Position numbers and translations under genes: made by a program. The notes beneath the pieces are model-generated. The model did not search any database. It saw only the letters and a program-made list of their open reading frames with translations, and was not told where the DNA came from. Source: Escherichia coli (lineage in GTDB: Bacteria; Pseudomonadota; Gammaproteobacteria; Enterobacterales; Enterobacteriaceae). Taken from it: a stretch of DNA of 64,000 bases. Of this stretch, positions 36,593 to 43,775 are shown piece by piece. The first letter of the stretch is position 1, and each line of letters opens with the position of its first letter. Location: the NCBI RefSeq assembly GCF_030013205.1, contig NZ_CP122648.1; one strand, written 5' to 3'.

Positions 36593-38260
36593 GTGGCTCA
36601 ATTCGTTTATACCATGCATCGTGTCGGCAAAGTTGTTCCGCCGAAACGTCATATTTTGAAAAACATCTCTCTGAGTTTCTTCCCTGGGGCAAAAATTGGT
36701 GTCCTGGGTCTGAACGGCGCGGGTAAGTCCACCCTGCTGCGCATTATGGCGGGCATTGATAAAGACATCGAAGGCGAAGCGCGTCCGCAACCGGATATCA
36801 AGATTGGTTATCTGCCGCAGGAACCGCAGCTGAACCCGGAACACACCGTGCGTGAGTCCATTGAAGAAGCGGTTTCTGAAGTGGTTAACGCCCTGAAACG
36901 CCTGGATGAAGTGTATGCGCTGTACGCCGATCCGGATGCCGATTTTGACAAGCTGGCCGCTGAACAAGGCCGTCTGGAAGAGATCATTCAGGCTCACGAC
37001 GGTCACAACCTGAACGTTCAGCTGGAGCGTGCGGCGGATGCGCTGCGTCTGCCGGACTGGGACGCGAAAATCGCTAACCTCTCCGGTGGTGAGCGTCGTC
37101 GCGTAGCGTTGTGCCGCCTGCTGCTGGAAAAACCAGACATGCTGCTGCTCGACGAACCGACCAACCACCTGGATGCCGAATCCGTGGCGTGGCTGGAACG
37201 CTTCCTGCACGACTTCGAAGGCACCGTTGTGGCGATTACCCACGACCGTTACTTCCTCGATAACGTGGCGGGCTGGATCCTCGAACTGGACCGTGGTGAA
37301 GGTATTCCGTGGGAAGGTAACTACTCCTCCTGGCTGGAGCAGAAAGATCAACGTCTGGCGCAGGAAGCTTCACAAGAAGCTGCGCGTCGTAAGTCGATTG
37401 AGAAAGAGCTGGAGTGGGTACGTCAGGGGACTAAAGGCCGTCAGTCGAAAGGTAAAGCACGTCTGGCGCGTTTTGAAGAGCTGAACAGCACCGAATATCA
37501 GAAACGTAACGAAACCAACGAACTGTTTATTCCACCGGGACCGCGTCTTGGCGATAAAGTGCTGGAAGTCAACAACCTGCGTAAATCCTATGGCGATCGT
37601 CTGCTGATTGATGACCTGAGCTTCTCGATCCCGAAAGGAGCGATCGTCGGGATCATCGGTCCGAACGGTGCGGGTAAATCGACCCTGTTCCGTATGATCT
37701 CCGGTCAGGAACAGCCGGACAGCGGCACCATCACTTTAGGTGAAACGGTGAAACTGGCATCGGTTGATCAGTTCCGTGACTCAATGGATAACAGCAAAAC
37801 CGTTTGGGAAGAAGTTTCCGGCGGGCTGGATATCATGAAGATCGGCAACACCGAGATGCCAAGCCGTGCCTACGTTGGCCGCTTTAACTTTAAAGGGGTT
37901 GATCAGGGTAAACGCGTTGGTGAACTCTCCGGCGGTGAGCGCGGTCGTCTGCATCTGGCGAAGCTGCTGCAAGTTGGCGGCAACATGTTGCTGCTCGACG
38001 AACCGACCAACGACCTGGATATCGAAACCCTGCGTGCGCTGGAAAACGCCCTGCTGGAGTTCCCGGGCTGCGCGATGGTTATCTCGCACGACCGTTGGTT
38101 CCTCGACCGTATCGCCACGCACATCCTGGACTACCAGGATGAAGGTAAAGTTGAGTTCTTCGAAGGTAACTTTACCGAGTACGAAGAGTACAAGAAACGC
38201 ACGCTGGGCGCAGACGCGCTGGAGCCGAAGCGTATCAAGTACAAGCGTATTGCGAAGTAA
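36593..38260 (+). CDS. ettA: energy-dependent translational throttle ABC-F ATPase EttA
   Basis: 555 aa, two Walker A motifs (GLNGAGKST, GPNGAGKST) and two LSGGE signatures. Confidence 0.96.
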   Translation: MAQFVYTMHRVGKVVPPKRHILKNISLSFFPGAKIGVLGLNGAGKSTLLRIMAGIDKDIEGEARPQPDIKIGYLPQEPQLNPEHTVRESIEEAVSEVVNALKRLDEVYALYADPDADFDKLAAEQGRLEEIIQAHDGHNLNVQLERAADALRLPDWDAKIANLSGGERRRVALCRLLLEKPDMLLLDEPTNHLDAESVAWLERFLHDFEGTVVAITHDRYFLDNVAGWILELDRGEGIPWEGNYSSWLEQKDQRLAQEASQEAARRKSIEKELEWVRQGTKGRQSKGKARLARFEELNSTEYQKRNETNELFIPPGPRLGDKVLEVNNLRKSYGDRLLIDDLSFSIPKGAIVGIIGPNGAGKSTLFRMISGQEQPDSGTITLGETVKLASVDQFRDSMDNSKTVWEEVSGGLDIMKIGNTEMPSRAYVGRFNFKGVDQGKRVGELSGGERGRLHLAKLLQVGGNMLLLDEPTNDLDIETLRALENALLEFPGCAMVISHDRWFLDRIATHILDYQDEGKVEFFEGNFTEYEEYKKRTLGADALEPKRIKYKRIAK

Positions 38261-38270
38261 TGCATAAAAT

Positions 38271-38302
38271 GCCGGATGCGGCGCGCCAGCATCGCATCCG
38301 GT
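38271..38302. repeat. REP-type palindromic element downstream of ettA
   Basis: gccggatgcg...cgcatccggt imperfect palindrome. Confidence 0.6.
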
Positions 38303-38415
38303 ATTAGTTAAATGATTAGTCCCCGGAAAAAGGCAGAATTTTCTTTAAGCGTATTAGCTCAGATGCGGACTGACACCTCAAATCAAGCGGGAACTCATGG
38401 TTCCCGCTTAACGTT

Positions 38416-39303
38416 TTATTCACCGCGCAGGATCTGGCGGAAATGGGAAACCAGCGGACGTTGGTTGGCTTTATGCCAGGCTGCCCATAATTGCGTTGAA
38501 TAATTCATCCACGGCAATTCACGTAATACCACCCCTTCCGGCGCATTATGACGCAGACTATGTTGAATTAAGGCCAGACCTAATCCCGCAGCGACCAAAC
38601 CTAATGCCGTGAGGGGTTCACCCGCTTCCAGGCGAATATCAGGATTAAACCCGGCGTTAACACAGGCGGCGACAAAATGATCGCGAGAATGCGCATCGTC
38701 GTTATGAATCACCGCAATCCACTGCTCATCGCCAAGTTGTGACGCGACAAGGTTTTCCTCCTGCGCCAGAGGATGATTTTGCGGTAAGGCCAACAACATT
38801 CGATCATCCAGAACCTGAATATATTCCAGATCCTGCTCGCTGTCGGTGGGCGGCGTATCGACCAGAGAAAAATCGAGACTGCGCTGGCGCAGGCCTTCAA
38901 TCTGGGTAGCCGGTGGTTGGCTGTAAAGTGCGATATGCACATTCGGACGCGATACACGTAACGTACGTAGCGCCGTAGAAAGCACACCGGAATGCATGGC
39001 GTTTTCGATATAGCCAATACACAAGCCACCATCTTCCCCCCGTCCCAGGCGTTTGCCTAACGACTCCAGGCGGTTGGCGTGTGTCAGCAACGAACGTGTT
39101 TCGGCAAGGAATGTCTGTCCATCAGCGGTCAGGCGAATGCGCTGCTGATTACGCTCAAACAGCGTCAGCCCCAGCCGTTCTTCCAGTTGTGCAATCTGGC
39201 GGCTCAGCGGTGATTGCGAGATATGTAATCGCTCGGCTGCGCGTCCCACGTGCTCTTCTTCTGCGACCACCACGAAGTACTTCAGTTGGCGTAAATCAAT
39301 CAT
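38416..39303 (-). CDS. LysR-family transcriptional regulator
   Basis: N-terminal HTH MIDLRQLKYFVVVAEEEHVGRAAERLHISQSPLSRQIAQLE; divergent from the oxidoreductase operon; start trimmed to the ATG at 39303. Confidence 0.85.
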   Translation of the reverse strand: MIDLRQLKYFVVVAEEEHVGRAAERLHISQSPLSRQIAQLEERLGLTLFERNQQRIRLTADGQTFLAETRSLLTHANRLESLGKRLGRGEDGGLCIGYIENAMHSGVLSTALRTLRVSRPNVHIALYSQPPATQIEGLRQRSLDFSLVDTPPTDSEQDLEYIQVLDDRMLLALPQNHPLAQEENLVASQLGDEQWIAVIHNDDAHSRDHFVAACVNAGFNPDIRLEAGEPLTALGLVAAGLGLALIQHSLRHNAPEGVVLRELPWMNYSTQLWAAWHKANQRPLVSHFRQILRGE

Positions 39304-39368
39304 GTTAGACCTCAAAGGACTTAAGTCAGACGAATTATGTCCTATCAAGTCACAACATCGCAAGGTAT

Positions 39369-39384
39369 TGTGATCCACGTCACA
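39369..39384. promoter_or_regulatory. consensus CRP binding site
   Basis: TGTGA-tccacg-TCACA, perfect match to both CRP half-sites, 53 bp upstream of the AKR start codon. Confidence 0.6.
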
Positions 39385-39436
39385 GGGCGATAGCAAAAAA
39401 ATGCCCTAACCCAAACCGAATAATTGAGGACATCTT

Positions 39437-40447
39437 ATGAGCATCAAAAATTTACTTCCCGGCAAAATTGGCTTAGGCGGCGCACCACTCGGCAACATGT
39501 TCCGTGCCATTCCGGAAGACGAGGCCCACGCCACCGTGAGCGAAGCCTGGAACCTGGGCGTGCGTTACTTTGATACCGCGCCGCTGTACGGCTCTGGCCT
39601 TTCTGAAATCCGCATGGGCGAAGCGCTGTCTCAGTATCCACGTGATGAATACGTTCTGAGCAGCAAAGTCGGCCGCATCATGCTGGACGAAATGGAAGAT
39701 CCGGCAAAACGTGATTTCGGTGAAAAAGGTGGCCTGTTCGAACATGGCCTGAAAAACAAAATTCTGAATGACTACTCTGCTGACGCCACGCTGCGCTCGA
39801 TTGAAGACAGCCTGAAACGCCTGAAAACAGATCGTCTGGATATTGTCTGGATCCACGACCCGGCGCAGGACTTCTACGGTGACAGCTGGCTGGAGCAGTT
39901 CAACATAGCCCGTACCGGTGCGTTTCGTGCGCTGACGCGTTTGCGTGACGAAGGTGTGATTAAAGCCTGGGGACTGGGTGTGAATCGCGTCGAACCTTGC
40001 GAACTGACGCTGGCGCTGGACGAACCGAAGCCGGATGCGTTCCTGCTGGCGGGGCGTTATTCCCTGCTGGATCACGAACGTGCGCTGCAACGCCTGATGC
40101 CAGAAGCACTGGAACAGAACGTGGATATTGTTGTGGGCGGTCCGTACAGCTCTGGCGTACTGGCAGGCGGCGAGCACTTTGAATATCAGAAAGCTTCTGC
40201 GGCCATCCAGCAGAAAGTGGCGCAAATTAACACCATTGCCACACGTTTCAATGTGAACGTTAAAGCAGCTGCGCTGCAGTTCGCGCTGGCAAACCCGGCC
40301 GTTGCGGCGGTTATTCCTGGCTCCAGCCGTCCTGGCCGTATGGCAGAAGATCTGGCTGCACTGAATGCGCCTGTTCCGGCTGAATTCTGGGCAGAAATGC
40401 GCCGTCAAAATCTGGTTGCGGAAAACGCTCCACTGCCGACCCGTTAA
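39437..40447 (+). CDS. aldo/keto reductase family oxidoreductase
   Basis: 336 aa with AKR N-terminal region (GLGGAPLGNMF...DTAPLYGSG). Confidence 0.85.
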   Translation: MSIKNLLPGKIGLGGAPLGNMFRAIPEDEAHATVSEAWNLGVRYFDTAPLYGSGLSEIRMGEALSQYPRDEYVLSSKVGRIMLDEMEDPAKRDFGEKGGLFEHGLKNKILNDYSADATLRSIEDSLKRLKTDRLDIVWIHDPAQDFYGDSWLEQFNIARTGAFRALTRLRDEGVIKAWGLGVNRVEPCELTLALDEPKPDAFLLAGRYSLLDHERALQRLMPEALEQNVDIVVGGPYSSGVLAGGEHFEYQKASAAIQQKVAQINTIATRFNVNVKAAALQFALANPAVAAVIPGSSRPGRMAEDLAALNAPVPAEFWAEMRRQNLVAENAPLPTR

Positions 40448-40466
40448 TCAACCTGGTGAGAAAACG

Positions 40467-41264
40467 ATGAAACTGGATCTGACAGGTAAAGTCGCGGTGG
40501 TCAGCGGCTCAACCTCCGGCATTGGGCAGGGTATCGCCGCCGGACTGGCAAAAGCAGGCGCAACGGTGGTTGTCGTCGGCCGTAAACAGCGCGGCGTTGA
40601 TGACGCCATGGCTGCGATTGCGGCACAAACTCCCACGGCGTCACTGCGTGGCGTGGTGGCCGACCTCAGCACCGAAGACGGCGTGACTGCGCTGATCGCT
40701 GCAGTCCCAACGGCTGATGTGCTGGTCAATAATCTGGGCATTTTCAACGATAAAGATTTCTTTAGCGTTCCGGATGATGAGTGGCTGCACTTCTATAACG
40801 TCAACGTCCTCTCCGGCGTTCGTCTGGCGCGTCACTATGCGCCAGGCATGACGGAACAGGGCTGGGGGCGGATTATCTTTGTCTCGTCCGAATCCGGCGT
40901 GGCAATTCCTGGCGACATGATCAACTACGGCGTCACCAAAGCTGCGAATCTGGCGGTTTCTCATGGTCTGGCGAAACGACTGGCAGGGACCGGTGTGACC
41001 GTCAACGCCATTCTGCCAGGGCCAACCTTTACCGATGGCCTGAAAGAGATACTGGCGGATGCCGCTGCACAATCGGGGCGCAGTGCGCGTGAACAGGCCG
41101 ATGAGTTTGTTAAAACCTCGCGTCCGAGCTCCATCATCCAGCGTGCGGCGGATGTGGAGGAAGTAGCGAATCTGGCGGTTTATCTCGCGTCACCGCTTTC
41201 CTCGGCAACCACAGGGGCAGCTCTGCGCGTCGATGGCGGTGTCGTCGACACCCTGACTATGTAA
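40467..41264 (+). CDS. short-chain dehydrogenase/reductase (SDR)
   Basis: MKLDLTGKVAVVSGSTSGIGQGIA (TGxxxGxG) and YGVTK active-site motif; ORF-track upstream extension trimmed. Confidence 0.88.
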   Translation: MKLDLTGKVAVVSGSTSGIGQGIAAGLAKAGATVVVVGRKQRGVDDAMAAIAAQTPTASLRGVVADLSTEDGVTALIAAVPTADVLVNNLGIFNDKDFFSVPDDEWLHFYNVNVLSGVRLARHYAPGMTEQGWGRIIFVSSESGVAIPGDMINYGVTKAANLAVSHGLAKRLAGTGVTVNAILPGPTFTDGLKEILADAAAQSGRSAREQADEFVKTSRPSSIIQRAADVEEVANLAVYLASPLSSATTGAALRVDGGVVDTLTM

Positions 41265-41289
41265 CCCTATAAATTAAGAGAAAATTATC

Positions 41290-41706
41290 ATGGCTAAAAC
41301 AACTGTATCGATCGAAATTCCGGCTTCTGCCGACGCCGTATGGCAATTGATGGGCGGCTTTGATGCGCTGCCAGACTGGCTGCCGTTCATCCCGAAAAGC
41401 GTAGTGACAGAAGGCGGTCGCGTTCGTTCGCTGACAACCTCTGACGGCGGCACTGTGGTTGAACGTCTGGAAGCGTTTGATAACCGTCAACGCAGTTATA
41501 CCTATTCCATTATTCAGGCACCGTTCCCGGTGGTGGATTACCTCTCCACCATTACCGTTCATGAAACCGCCGACAGCCAGGTTTCCCGTGTGGAATGGTT
41601 CGGTGAATTCACCCCGGTGAATGTGACGAACGAAGAGGCCGAAGCGCTGTTTACCGGCATCTATCGGGATGGTCTCAAGGCGCTGAAGGACAACTTTGTT
41701 GCCTGA
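41290..41706 (+). CDS. SRPBCC-superfamily (polyketide cyclase-like) small protein
   Basis: 138 aa, pattern resembles SRPBCC ligand-binding proteins; family by recall. Confidence 0.5.
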   Translation: MAKTTVSIEIPASADAVWQLMGGFDALPDWLPFIPKSVVTEGGRVRSLTTSDGGTVVERLEAFDNRQRSYTYSIIQAPFPVVDYLSTITVHETADSQVSRVEWFGEFTPVNVTNEEAEALFTGIYRDGLKALKDNFVA

Positions 41707-41863
41707 TGCGATCGACAGGCGTCGGAACGTCCGGCGTCTGATTATTAACAAAATCAGAATAGTCTATTGCCATTTGTATCATTTATGTTATCAGGCAGTA
41801 GGCGTATTCTCTCCCCATCGCGTTAATAAACGCCAAACAATTAAGACACTCTGGAATATAAAC

Positions 41864-42076
41864 ATGAAAACGATCATCGCAATTTTTACGGCTTCTCTTT
41901 TCTCTGTCGCGGCGTTTAACGCATCGGCGCAAAGCGTGACAGCAACCGGTACAACACTGGATTCCGCTGAAGCGGTTATTGCGCAGAAAGCGAAAGAGAT
42001 GAACGCCTCTGAATACAAAATTACCAGCGCTCGCATGGGCAATACCGTCACCATGAGTGCCGAACTGTACAAATAA
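41864..42076 (+). CDS. DUF1471 (YdgH/BhsA/McbA-family) periplasmic stress protein
   Basis: 70 aa, signal peptide, ITS...GN...YK C-terminal pattern as in BhsA. Confidence 0.7.
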   Translation: MKTIIAIFTASLFSVAAFNASAQSVTATGTTLDSAEAVIAQKAKEMNASEYKITSARMGNTVTMSAELYK

Positions 42077-42124
42077 CCGCACGAGAGACCCATTACGTAA
42101 TTTGCTAAATATGCGCTGAATGCG

Positions 42125-42316
42125 TTGCCATTAATAAACCGTATTGTAATGCCACCGATGACGCGTTCCCGTGCGGGTGCGGGTGACGTTGCGATTGACA
42201 TGATGGCGGAGTATTACGCGCAGCGCGCCAGTGCAGAACTTATCATCAGCGAAGGTACGCAAATCAGCAGAAGCGCTGCGCATAATTTTCCACGGCCCGC
42301 TGATTTACTCCGGTAA
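42125..42316 (+). pseudogene. N-terminal fragment of an old-yellow-enzyme (NemA-like) flavin oxidoreductase
   Basis: 63 codons with OYE N-terminal signature (PPMTRSRA...MAEYYAQRASAELIISEGTQIS) then stop; a complete enzyme would be about 365 aa. Confidence 0.6.
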
Positions 42317-42542
42317 ATAGACCAAAGCGCGCGCCGAAGCGGACTGTCAGATTTGATTGCATTCTGGCTACGCAACTGATCGGTTGGAGTATGAAGTTGC
42401 TCACGAATAGCCTTAGCATCTGCAATTTCGTAGCGGGTCACCCGTGCAGGTTCTTTCTAATCTCAACAGCCTCTTCCAGAGAGTTTTTCAACTCATCAAA
42501 AAAACTCAATTTATACCTCGCCTTTGAGCCGTTTCATCACGG

Positions 42543-43775
42543 TTATCTCTGCTCCCCCATCATCTCCCGCACAAGTTCCACGCAGCGCAGGAAACGGCTG
42601 TCATAATCGTCCTCTTCAACACGCACGAATTCGATATTGTTCTCTTCCAGCATCTCCACCAGCAAGTTCTGGAACTCTTTGCGATCCACCGAACTGCCGA
42701 GACTGCGTAAACCATCCGCCACCCACGGCGTGTTGTTCTCCAGCAAGATAACCAGATCAAAACGGTATTCATCAATCAGCGCCTGCACGAACGGATGCTC
42801 ACGCCCTTCGTACTTTTTGCAGAACGCCTGGGTAGTGACAAAATCAGTGTCGATAAACGCCACTTTATTGGCGTATTTCACTGCAAAATCAATATATTGC
42901 GCGTGTCCTAGCGCGATTTTATCGTAGTCGGAATACTGCAATGCGATCTCATCACCGCCAAGGTGTGAAAAGACATAATCGCGACCATATTCCCACGCAC
43001 TGGTGGTATTGAAGATATTGGCAAGTTTGTTTACCAGGGTGGATTTACCGCTCGACTCGCCGCCAAGGATCGCCACGGTACGCACAAAGAACGGCTTCAC
43101 TTCGGTGGGAATATATTCCCAGTAGCGGAACGGGTTTTCGCGGATCTGCGCACCGCTGATACTCATAAAGGTGCGTTTCGGATCGACCAGCACCGTTTCG
43201 ATCCCCAGATGTTCCATATACTGTGGCGCATCGGCTTCTTCCGAGGTGTAGATCAGGTCCGGCTGGATCCCCTTTTCAGCCATAAACTTTTTGATGCCGT
43301 TGCTCCACACATCCCAGCCGTGCGGATACGGCTCCATGCCCTCTTCGTTGAAAGCATGAATACGGATATTTTTCTGATATTTAAAGGTTTGCAATAACCA
43401 GCGCAGACGATCCGGCACCGTGGGCTGCTGCGACATGGCGCTGTCTTCAAACAACGCACGGTCACGGGTATCGTCAAAGCCCATAATGATATGCAGCTCG
43501 TCAACCTGGCTACAGGCGCGCTGGATAAGGTAGATATGTCCGGTATGTAGCGGGTAGAACTTACCGAATACGACACCAATGGTTTTCTTCTGCCGGGGAA
43601 ATTCAAGCCCCAAAAAACGGTGCAACGCCTCCAGCTTTTGCGCGCTGGGGCTTTTAATTTTGGCATTCAGTAACTGGCTTAAATACCCTTTGGTCATACC
43701 GCTGGCATCAGCTACCTGCTGTAGCGTGCAGCCCTGTTGCTTGATGGCAGTTTTCAGGTAATCAAATGACGACAT
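42543..43775 (-). CDS. nadR: trifunctional NAD biosynthesis regulator NadR
   Basis: MSSFDYLKTAIKQQGCTLQQVADASGMTKGYLSQLL...; internal ATG used. Confidence 0.93.
   Translation of the reverse strand: MSSFDYLKTAIKQQGCTLQQVADASGMTKGYLSQLLNAKIKSPSAQKLEALHRFLGLEFPRQKKTIGVVFGKFYPLHTGHIYLIQRACSQVDELHIIMGFDDTRDRALFEDSAMSQQPTVPDRLRWLLQTFKYQKNIRIHAFNEEGMEPYPHGWDVWSNGIKKFMAEKGIQPDLIYTSEEADAPQYMEHLGIETVLVDPKRTFMSISGAQIRENPFRYWEYIPTEVKPFFVRTVAILGGESSGKSTLVNKLANIFNTTSAWEYGRDYVFSHLGGDEIALQYSDYDKIALGHAQYIDFAVKYANKVAFIDTDFVTTQAFCKKYEGREHPFVQALIDEYRFDLVILLENNTPWVADGLRSLGSSVDRKEFQNLLVEMLEENNIEFVRVEEDDYDSRFLRCVELVREMMGEQR

Follow-up and report, generated by a model that had tools for sequence, protein, structure and literature searches.

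The window examined here is a stretch of 64,000 nucleotides of Escherichia coli DNA (contig NZ_CP122648.1). Between its ettA and nadR genes lies an islet that encodes a LysR-type regulator, an aldo/keto reductase (AKR), a short-chain dehydrogenase/reductase (SDR), and a small protein of the SRPBCC family, followed by a DUF1471 protein and the remnant of an old yellow enzyme (OYE). Judged from gene order and protein identity across bacteria, the islet is no oddity of E. coli but a copy of a module that is widespread, highly conserved, and horizontally mobile. Over the whole region, the genes are arranged in the order slt (minus strand), ettA, LysR, AKR, SDR, SRPBCC, DUF1471, OYE remnant, nadS pseudogene, nadR, radA, and serB. 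This order is based on the list of open reading frames (ORFs) and on profile searches, which agree with what RefSeq annotates in an identical strain (NZ_CP062203). The islet is composed of the following genes and control region:

38416-39303, minus strand: intact gene of a LysR-type regulator, 295 aa (HTH_1 85.7 bits, LysR_substrate 133.8 bits)
39304-39436, no strand: divergent control region, a 133-bp spacer with a conserved block at 39307-39363
39437-40447, plus strand: AKR, 336 aa, first gene of the operon (PF00248 153 bits)
40467-41264, plus strand: classical SDR, 265 aa (adh_short_C2 154 bits)
41290-41706, plus strand: SRPBCC (Bet v 1-like, helix-grip) small protein, 138 aa (Polyketide_cyc2 107 bits)
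41864-42076, plus strand: DUF1471 (YdgH/BhsA/McbA-like) small secreted protein, 70 aa (PF07338 44 bits)
42095-42342, plus strand: dead NemA-like OYE gene, matching NemA residues 17-66

The AKR, SDR, and SRPBCC genes form an operon (39437-41706) with intergenic gaps of 19 and 25 nt. The DUF1471 gene is set apart by a separate upstream spacer of 157 nt. An earlier note on this DNA had described a LysR gene divergent from an AKR-SDR-SRPBCC operon, with a DUF1471 gene and an OYE fragment on its 3′ side, and this is the arrangement found. The note had also called the interval accessory and had described ettA and nadR as neighbors in K-12. Indeed, the two genes are adjacent in K-12 MG1655, where a 307-bp spacer without any islet gene separates them, and the complete E. 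coli genomes that carry the islet number 482 of 5426 (8.9%). In all 482 carriers it is chromosomal, single-copy, and flanked by ettA and nadR; a plasmid origin within E. coli was rejected, as 0 of the 482 copies are plasmid-borne. The interval 37800-43000 is 100% identical in several chromosomes of swine enterotoxigenic E. coli or O139:H1. The structural part of the explanation, that is gene content, site, and accessory status, is near certain. As a genomic feature the islet is of an ordinary kind, an acquired regulator with an oxidoreductase operon that is already annotated in RefSeq. The range first assigned to it, 38303-42542, contains all of its genes, but it covers the whole ettA-nadR spacer, of which the transferred segment takes up only ~38385-42342.

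No islet product reaches the cutoff of an NCBIfam equivalog, i.e., of a characterized family. Presence of the genes in K-12 and well-established unrelated functions, the two objections foreseen in the earlier note, do not arise. The five intact genes are free of internal stops, and their ratios of nonsynonymous to synonymous substitution rates (dN/dS), computed against six orthologous copies, lie between 0.03 and 0.2; by this measure they are under purifying selection.

The AKR matches PF00248 over residues 10-322 with 153.2 bits (cutoff 24). Its catalytic tetrad (D46, Y51, K77, and H140) aligns with that of plant L-galactose dehydrogenase through the motifs FDT(S/A)PxYG, (S/T)K(C/V)GR, and HD, and all four residues are invariant in 88 orthologs. 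Across these orthologs, 183 of 336 residues (54%) are invariant. The identity amounts to 90% in Enterobacter, 85-86% in Acinetobacter, 75-78% in Pseudomonas, and 72-75% in Streptomyces and Bacillus, and the dN/dS is 0.03-0.06. YdjG is the best NCBIfam match, with 71.5 bits against a cutoff of 550. The nearest solved relatives are the plant L-galactose dehydrogenases (PDB 8scc, 7smi, and 7ezi), which share the common AKR fold and the aligned tetrad. The relation is remote, however (106 bits in two local stretches), and the plant enzyme oxidizes its sugar with NAD+. Residues 82-111 (window 39680-39769) form a conserved insertion of ~30 residues, LDE.ED...RD.G.K.G.F..G..N, that is found in the bacterial proteins only and is absent from the plant L-galactose dehydrogenases. 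It may represent a family-specific loop for binding of a substrate or a partner.

The SDR is matched by adh_short_C2 with 153.9 bits and displays the motifs of a classical SDR: SGSTSGIG (13-20), NNLG (88-91), SSESG (140-144), Y154-x3-K158, and PG (184-185). The residues G38-R39-K40 follow the second strand. In SDRs, basic residues after strand β2 go with the use of NADP(H). The structure of a close ortholog has been solved (PDB 8g9m, E 5e-136) and was deposited without a functional name.

The SRPBCC protein matches PF10604 with 106.6 bits and is 60-61% identical to the solved proteins 3cnw (“XoxI” from Bacillus cereus) and 3f08 (Q6HG14 from Bacillus thuringiensis). Its AlphaFold model (mean confidence score pLDDT 89.6) takes on a β-sheet with a long C-terminal helix and superimposes on 3cnw with a template-modeling (TM) score of 0.95. 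These two structures and the SDR structures 8g9m and 3t4x belong to orthologs or close homologs of the islet proteins; all four are structural-genomics deposits without assigned function and provide fold information only. The next characterized fold neighbors are the PYL abscisic acid receptors, with TM scores of ~0.85 (0.82-0.88) at 20-27% identity. The PYR/PYL/RCAR receptors belong to the same Pfam family and hold an enone-carboxylate terpenoid in their helix-grip cavity, whereas the SRPBCC protein lacks a phosphatase partner and shows weak sequence similarity to them. Moreover, the rank of the PYLs among the fold neighbors may reflect their heavy over-representation in the PDB. As a functional lead the fold search was set aside, since only uncharacterized orthologs and PYL receptors were returned. 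The model points to a protein that binds a small molecule, and to nothing more specific. The DUF1471 protein gives weak NCBIfam matches to BhsA, RclB, and YhcN, all of them below the cutoff, and has a dN/dS of 0.06-0.17.

The regulator is likewise without a characterized family. Its best NCBIfam matches are AlsR, with 223 bits for a cutoff of 430, and PRK09986, with 207 bits for a cutoff of 290. The regulator is conserved along with the operon (65-99% identity) and has a dN/dS of 0.03-0.07. In the divergent spacer, a block of ~45 nt beside the LysR gene is at least 90% conserved in 78 distinct LysR-AKR spacers from four orders. An alignment of Enterobacterales, Acinetobacter, Pseudomonas, and Burkholderiales gives the block consensus AGACC-N5-GGACTyAAGT-N7-ATTATGTCyT...GTC...CGCAA. 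A promoter scan locates a minus-strand promoter-like site (TTGCGA-18-CATAAT) at 39363-39334, which is overlapped by the conserved block, and a putative ribosome-binding site of the AKR gene, GAGGA, is positioned at 39426-39430. There are two candidate dyads in the spacer: GACTTAAGTC at 39318-39327, and TCACAA-N12-TTGTGA at 39350-39373, the latter limited to Enterobacteriaceae.

The distribution of the module was followed with a scan of one genome per species, which returned 571 relatives of the AKR, and with tblastn searches of the window proteins against 80 related loci that were fetched. In ~70 of these 80 loci, from Enterobacterales, Acinetobacter, and Pseudomonas, the minus-strand LysR gene and the plus-strand AKR, SDR, and SRPBCC genes are kept as a unit. 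The unit is found in Escherichia, Trabulsiella, Yokenella, Yersinia, Klebsiella, Raoultella, Providencia, Serratia, Ewingella, Acinetobacter, and dozens of Pseudomonas species, and Enterobacter is also among the genera with the regulator-AKR-SDR-SRPBCC block. The SRPBCC ortholog is listed for thousands of Klebsiella assemblies, and a 331-kb plasmid of Ewingella americana (pB61a) bears the module. The modules of Acinetobacter baumannii (ABUW_1479-1482), of the Klebsiella pneumoniae chromosome, and of pB61a share the gene order, the orientation, and the conserved spacer block of the islet. For ABUW_1479-1482, orthology was verified by synteny and by 77, 86, 82, and 66% identity of the four proteins. 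The modules of other bacteria differ from the E. coli copy in that they occupy different genomic sites, whereas the E. coli copy is accessory and situated within nadS; the DUF1471 and OYE extras are restricted to Enterobacterales.

Two Pseudomonas gingeri-type loci, as well as those of Caballeronia, Streptomyces, and Bacillus, lack the SDR; there, the AKR gene lies next to the SRPBCC gene or overlaps with it. In the B. cereus group (L093 4612-5000), this AKR-SRPBCC bicistron is preceded by a non-coding leader of ~390 nt and has no adjacent regulator gene. The idea of a riboswitch was rejected, since neither this leader nor the window region has a match in Rfam; no Rfam family matches the islet region.

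The DUF1471 gene on the 3′ side of the operon occurs in Enterobacterales only, Klebsiella included. The loci of Escherichia, Yokenella, and Trabulsiella have a NemA-like OYE next to the module. In Gottfriedia (Bacillus group), an OYE gene and the gene of an HxlR-family regulator are located directly upstream of the AKR-SRPBCC pair, and in Streptomyces an HxlR-AKR gene pair is adjacent at the module locus. When three genes on each side were clustered over the 80 loci, no further gene family was found to travel with the module; only vertically inherited, Pseudomonas-specific flanks emerged (a two-component system).

In Trabulsiella odontotermitis (L016 3437-4797), the DUF1471-OYE pair is placed on the LysR side, downstream of the LysR gene and on the same strand, and the OYE is seemingly split into two ORFs. 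Because the pair is on the opposite side of the LysR gene there, DUF1471 and OYE appear from gene order to move as a unit of their own while remaining beside the module.

What makes the islet notable is the very wide distribution and strong conservation of a module whose function is unstudied: three structural-genomics orthologs have been solved, but the literature search found no functional study. The four-gene module is common in genera of clinical relevance (Klebsiella, Enterobacter, Acinetobacter, and Serratia) as well as in soil- and plant-associated bacteria (Pseudomonas, Burkholderiales, Streptomyces, and the B. cereus group), and once its inducer and its substrate are identified, thousands of genomes could be annotated together. 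For E. coli, the islet adds one more strain-variable metabolic or stress capability, and carriers and non-carriers offer a handy natural comparison.

The best explanation for the locus as a whole is an acquired islet that carries a LysR-activated, NAD(P)H-dependent carbonyl-reducing module, with an estimated probability of roughly 0.55. An inducible module for the detoxification of carbonyls or electrophiles, as put forward in the earlier note, is plausible on indirect evidence. Beyond the gene content, we infer LysR regulation, the catalytic direction, the substrate class, and the role of the SRPBCC protein. In the proposed mechanism, the LysR regulator would bind to the conserved block of the 133-bp spacer as its operator and activate the operon in response to a small-molecule inducer, which would be the substrate or a product. 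The SRPBCC protein would bind a hydrophobic carbonyl compound (an enone, quinone, or dicarbonyl) and perhaps isomerize it. Subsequently, the AKR and SDR would reduce carbonyl groups of the bound compound with NAD(P)H, the net effect being a lowered reactivity of an exogenous or stress-derived electrophile. The assignment of the substrate to the hydrophobic carbonyls and electrophiles is the more tentative part and is judged to fall somewhat short of even odds.

A role in electrophile or carbonyl stress is favored because NemA-like OYEs and HxlR-family regulators recur as neighbors of the module. NemA is an electrophile-response enzyme, and among the members of the HxlR/DUF24 family are YodB, CatR, and QsrR, which sense quinones and electrophiles. 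The Gottfriedia and Streptomyces loci, with HxlR-family genes beside the AKR, resemble the HxlR/DUF24 regulons of Firmicutes in this respect; quinone sensing at these loci is putative, and the Proteobacterial module differs in its LysR-type regulator. A comparable logic is found in the NemR-NemA-GloA and RclR-RclABC responses of E. coli, which also combine a regulator with NAD(P)H-dependent reductases. In some Enterobacterales, the module is accompanied by a NemA-like OYE (396 bits) and by a DUF1471 protein with weak similarity to RclB and BhsA. However, the module uses a LysR-type regulator instead of a TetR-type (NemR) or AraC-type (RclR) one, its core consists of an AKR and an SDR instead of an OYE or a glyoxalase, and the OYE is dead in the islet, so the likeness to the NemR and RclR systems is one of logic and not of membership.

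A single expression data set, from A. baumannii, provides a further, confounded, reason to favor this role. In a glutathione-deficient gshA mutant of A. baumannii AB5075, the orthologs ABUW_1479-1482 are up by log2 1.5-2.4 (2.8- to 5-fold) in RNA-seq (PMC12914303).

Several points weigh against the carbonyl-reducing module. According to the supplement of the A. baumannii study, all of ABUW_1476-1493 rises in the gshA mutant, on both strands and with the csu pilus operon included (PMC12914303), a pattern that fits a regional amplification as well as a specific induction. The B. cereus gene BC_3410, which is induced 17-fold by a proanthocyanidin trimer on an array (PMC4899491), shares its product name with the orthologs, but its orthology is unconfirmed. 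Apart from this array and the A. baumannii study, the literature search yielded nothing relevant, and it found no biochemical or genetic test of any ortholog. No confident LysR-type T-N11-A box can be assigned in the spacer. Furthermore, the nearest solved relatives of the AKR are sugar 1-dehydrogenases, which oxidize rather than reduce. The conservation of the AKR hints at one specific substrate, because 54% of invariant residues across phyla is atypical of broad-spectrum detoxification enzymes. Finally, the OYE is absent from most module loci and was lost in E. coli and independently in Escherichia whittamii; because of this repeated loss and absence, it is not required for the module.

As proof of induction, the A. 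baumannii RNA-seq data were downgraded, since the entire neighboring region rises together. The joint rise of ABUW_1476-1493 resembles a regional change in copy number, whereas the authors of that study interpret the genes singly (in the A. baumannii locus examined here, L096 1451-7244 corresponds to ABUW_1477-1482).

Another view, unlikely by our estimate, takes the AKR and SRPBCC proteins as a catalytic unit of two proteins dedicated to a single specific and widespread compound, such as an enone or dicarbonyl from plants or microbes, with the LysR-type regulator and SDR as Proteobacterial additions. The SRPBCC protein would then be an obligate partner of the AKR, serving as an isomerase, tautomerase, or substrate-delivery subunit, in analogy to plant neopinone isomerase with codeinone reductase. 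The pair would have spread horizontally over Proteobacteria, Actinobacteria, and Firmicutes, across which the AKR is still 72-78% identical, with 54% of its residues invariant.

Three further explanations are ranked as less likely than the carbonyl/electrophile module. The partnership of AKR and SRPBCC genes could belong to a cassette for the tailoring of, or signaling by, small molecules, with the SRPBCC protein in the role of a cyclase, dehydratase, or isomerase and two reductases that modify a polyketide-like compound or a lactone or diketone signal made or intercepted by the cell. The Pfam family of the SRPBCC protein is named “polyketide cyclase/dehydrase,” the coupling of the two genes is tight (in locus L090 they overlap by 4 bp), and the extreme conservation of the AKR suggests one defined substrate. 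In plants, the AKR codeinone reductase has a protein with a Bet v 1 fold, neopinone isomerase, as its working partner. Yet no polyketide synthase, acyl carrier protein, ligase, or other biosynthetic gene is nearby at any locus examined, E. coli and Klebsiella carry the module without such a pathway beside it, and the nearest characterized fold neighbors of the SRPBCC protein are receptors and not enzymes, which leaves the cassette unlikely. The resemblance of the AKR to plant enzymes leads to a sugar-oxidation module, with the AKR as a D-threo-aldose 1-dehydrogenase (L-fucose, L-galactose, or D-arabinose type) that starts the catabolism of a rare sugar. This is the label, “D-threo-aldose 1-dehydrogenase,” that JGI and some NCBI records attach to the orthologs, and by sequence the plant L-galactose dehydrogenases are the nearest solved structures at 106 bits. 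The similarity is remote, however, being confined to two local stretches, and the AKR has its family-specific insertion of ~30 residues and falls short of every NCBIfam equivalog. Across more than 90 loci, the module has no transporter, lactonase, dehydratase, or aldolase in its company, and the constant partner of the AKR has a hydrophobic-ligand-binding fold. Sugar oxidation is consequently considered improbable.

That the islet is a silent passenger, a decaying remnant without current function in E. coli, may be suspected from the dead OYE and nadS beside it and from the 91% of E. coli genomes that lack it. Five genes are nevertheless intact in the window and annotated as intact among the carriers listed, their dN/dS ratios relative to the six orthologous copies are low (0.03-0.2), and the promoter/operator block is conserved; a passenger is thus highly improbable.

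The islet seems to have reached E. coli from outside. The copy in Escherichia sp. E69 is 97.5% identical to the islet (synonymous divergence dS ~0.08) and adjoins yhiN/pitA, whereas the flanking core DNA of E69 is only 92.5% identical to that of E. coli. The copy in E. whittamii is in a third genomic context. The homology among the three copies starts at 38383-38385, just outside a hairpin after the LysR stop codon. Because the islet copies are much closer than the core genomes, the comparison argues that the islet moved between Escherichia lineages after their divergence. On the evidence of the junctions, a horizontally acquired islet of ~4 kb landed in the decaying nadS gene of an E. coli ancestor and is now present in ~9% of strains. 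GC content was rejected as a sign of foreign origin, since the 54% of the islet is not diagnostic against the 50% of the window.

A contig binned to a metagenome-assembled genome of “Collinsella sp.” (JAIJJM010000794.1, 1397 bp) encodes proteins that are 100% identical to those of the E. coli islet, and its LysR-AKR spacer differs from the window at three positions. Most likely, it is a mis-binned E. coli contig.

The flanks and junctions of the islet harbor the following features:

36593-38260, plus strand: ettA, left flanking gene
38305-38384, minus strand: 3′ piece of the nadS (helix-turn-helix antitoxin) pseudogene, left flank; 38305-38348 align at 95% to EC42405 nadS
38365-38375 (left) and 42339-42349 (right, at the OYE truncation point), no strand: imperfect 11-bp junction repeat GCGGACTG(A/T)CA, from a repeat search and direct reading
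38385-38409, no strand: GC-rich hairpin with an 11-bp stem (terminator scan), which closely follows the LysR stop codon and forms the left edge of the transferred segment
42343-42509, minus strand: right flank with the 5′ part of the nadS pseudogene; 42395-42539 align at 87% to the intact toxin-nadS locus (L003 2716-2870)
42510-42542, minus strand: stub of a RelE/ParE-type toxin gene, the remainder deleted up to nadR (alignment to the intact toxin-antitoxin locus)
42543-43775, minus strand: nadR, right flanking gene

An intact pair of a RelE/ParE-type toxin and the NadS antitoxin occupies the same ettA-nadR site in 673 other genomes (L003 2556-3174 in strain EC42405), and intact NadS scores 182.6 bits in its profile against a cutoff of 60. 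Of the 5426 complete E. coli genomes, 482 have the islet in this spacer, 673 the toxin-nadS pair, and most others nadS remnants like those of K-12. The stretch 38305-38348 aligns with the 3′ end of the intact nadS (L003 2556-2599); by translation, 38349-38384 probably encodes a diverged NadS C-terminus, which would extend the 3′ piece to 38384. On the other side, RefSeq has a “NadS family protein” at 42373-42509, which it marks as frameshifted and incomplete. Because the junction alignments place the 3′ end and the 5′ half of nadS on opposite sides, the islet lies inside the decayed antitoxin gene. The alignment to the intact toxin-antitoxin locus stops ~29 bp into the toxin (its 3′ end), and the end-point of the toxin deletion is identical in the window and K-12. 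The pair occupies the same spacer as the islet, whose flanks are the remains of the pair, but it is functionally unrelated: it was the insertion target and stands outside the module.

The junction repeat GCGGACTG(A/T)CA is weak evidence for a microhomology-mediated joining or a target duplication, because it is one of 43 families of short repeats in 4.4 kb. No integrase or transposase ORF and no insertion sequence was found, nor any tRNA in 30-50 kb. A mobile element was accordingly rejected as an explanation, with the junction repeat being no better than 42 chance repeats.

The OYE gene at the right end is truncated at this junction. Full-length OYE genes follow the DUF1471 gene in E69 and Yokenella; the one of E69 (L007 8659-9756) encodes 365 aa and reaches 396 bits with the N-ethylmaleimide reductase model (cutoff 403). 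Compared with this intact gene, the E. coli copy has its start codon changed from ATG to ACG and codon 2 from TTA to TAA, carries an internal deletion of 686 bp, and has lost the last 164 bp. A full-length OYE is present in 0 of the 482 E. coli carriers. The OYE of E. whittamii (L008 8656-9116) has an internal deletion other than that of E. coli, i.e., it was inactivated independently.

Two minor features concern the ettA-nadR interval itself. Directly 3′ of the ettA stop codon, a 13-bp inverted repeat (AATGCCGGATGCG / CGCATCCGGTATT, window 38268-38305) looks like a palindrome of the repetitive extragenic palindromic (REP) type or the ettA terminator; the equivalent spacer of K-12 contains several similar GCCGGATGCGGCG elements. 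In the swine strains EC556, EC571, and EC581 (NZ_AP027440, NZ_AP027436, and NZ_AP027432), a transposase gene of the IS200C family lies within the interval 37800-43000. The match to this interval is there split into two pieces that are ~700 bp farther apart than in the window, which is free of the insertion.

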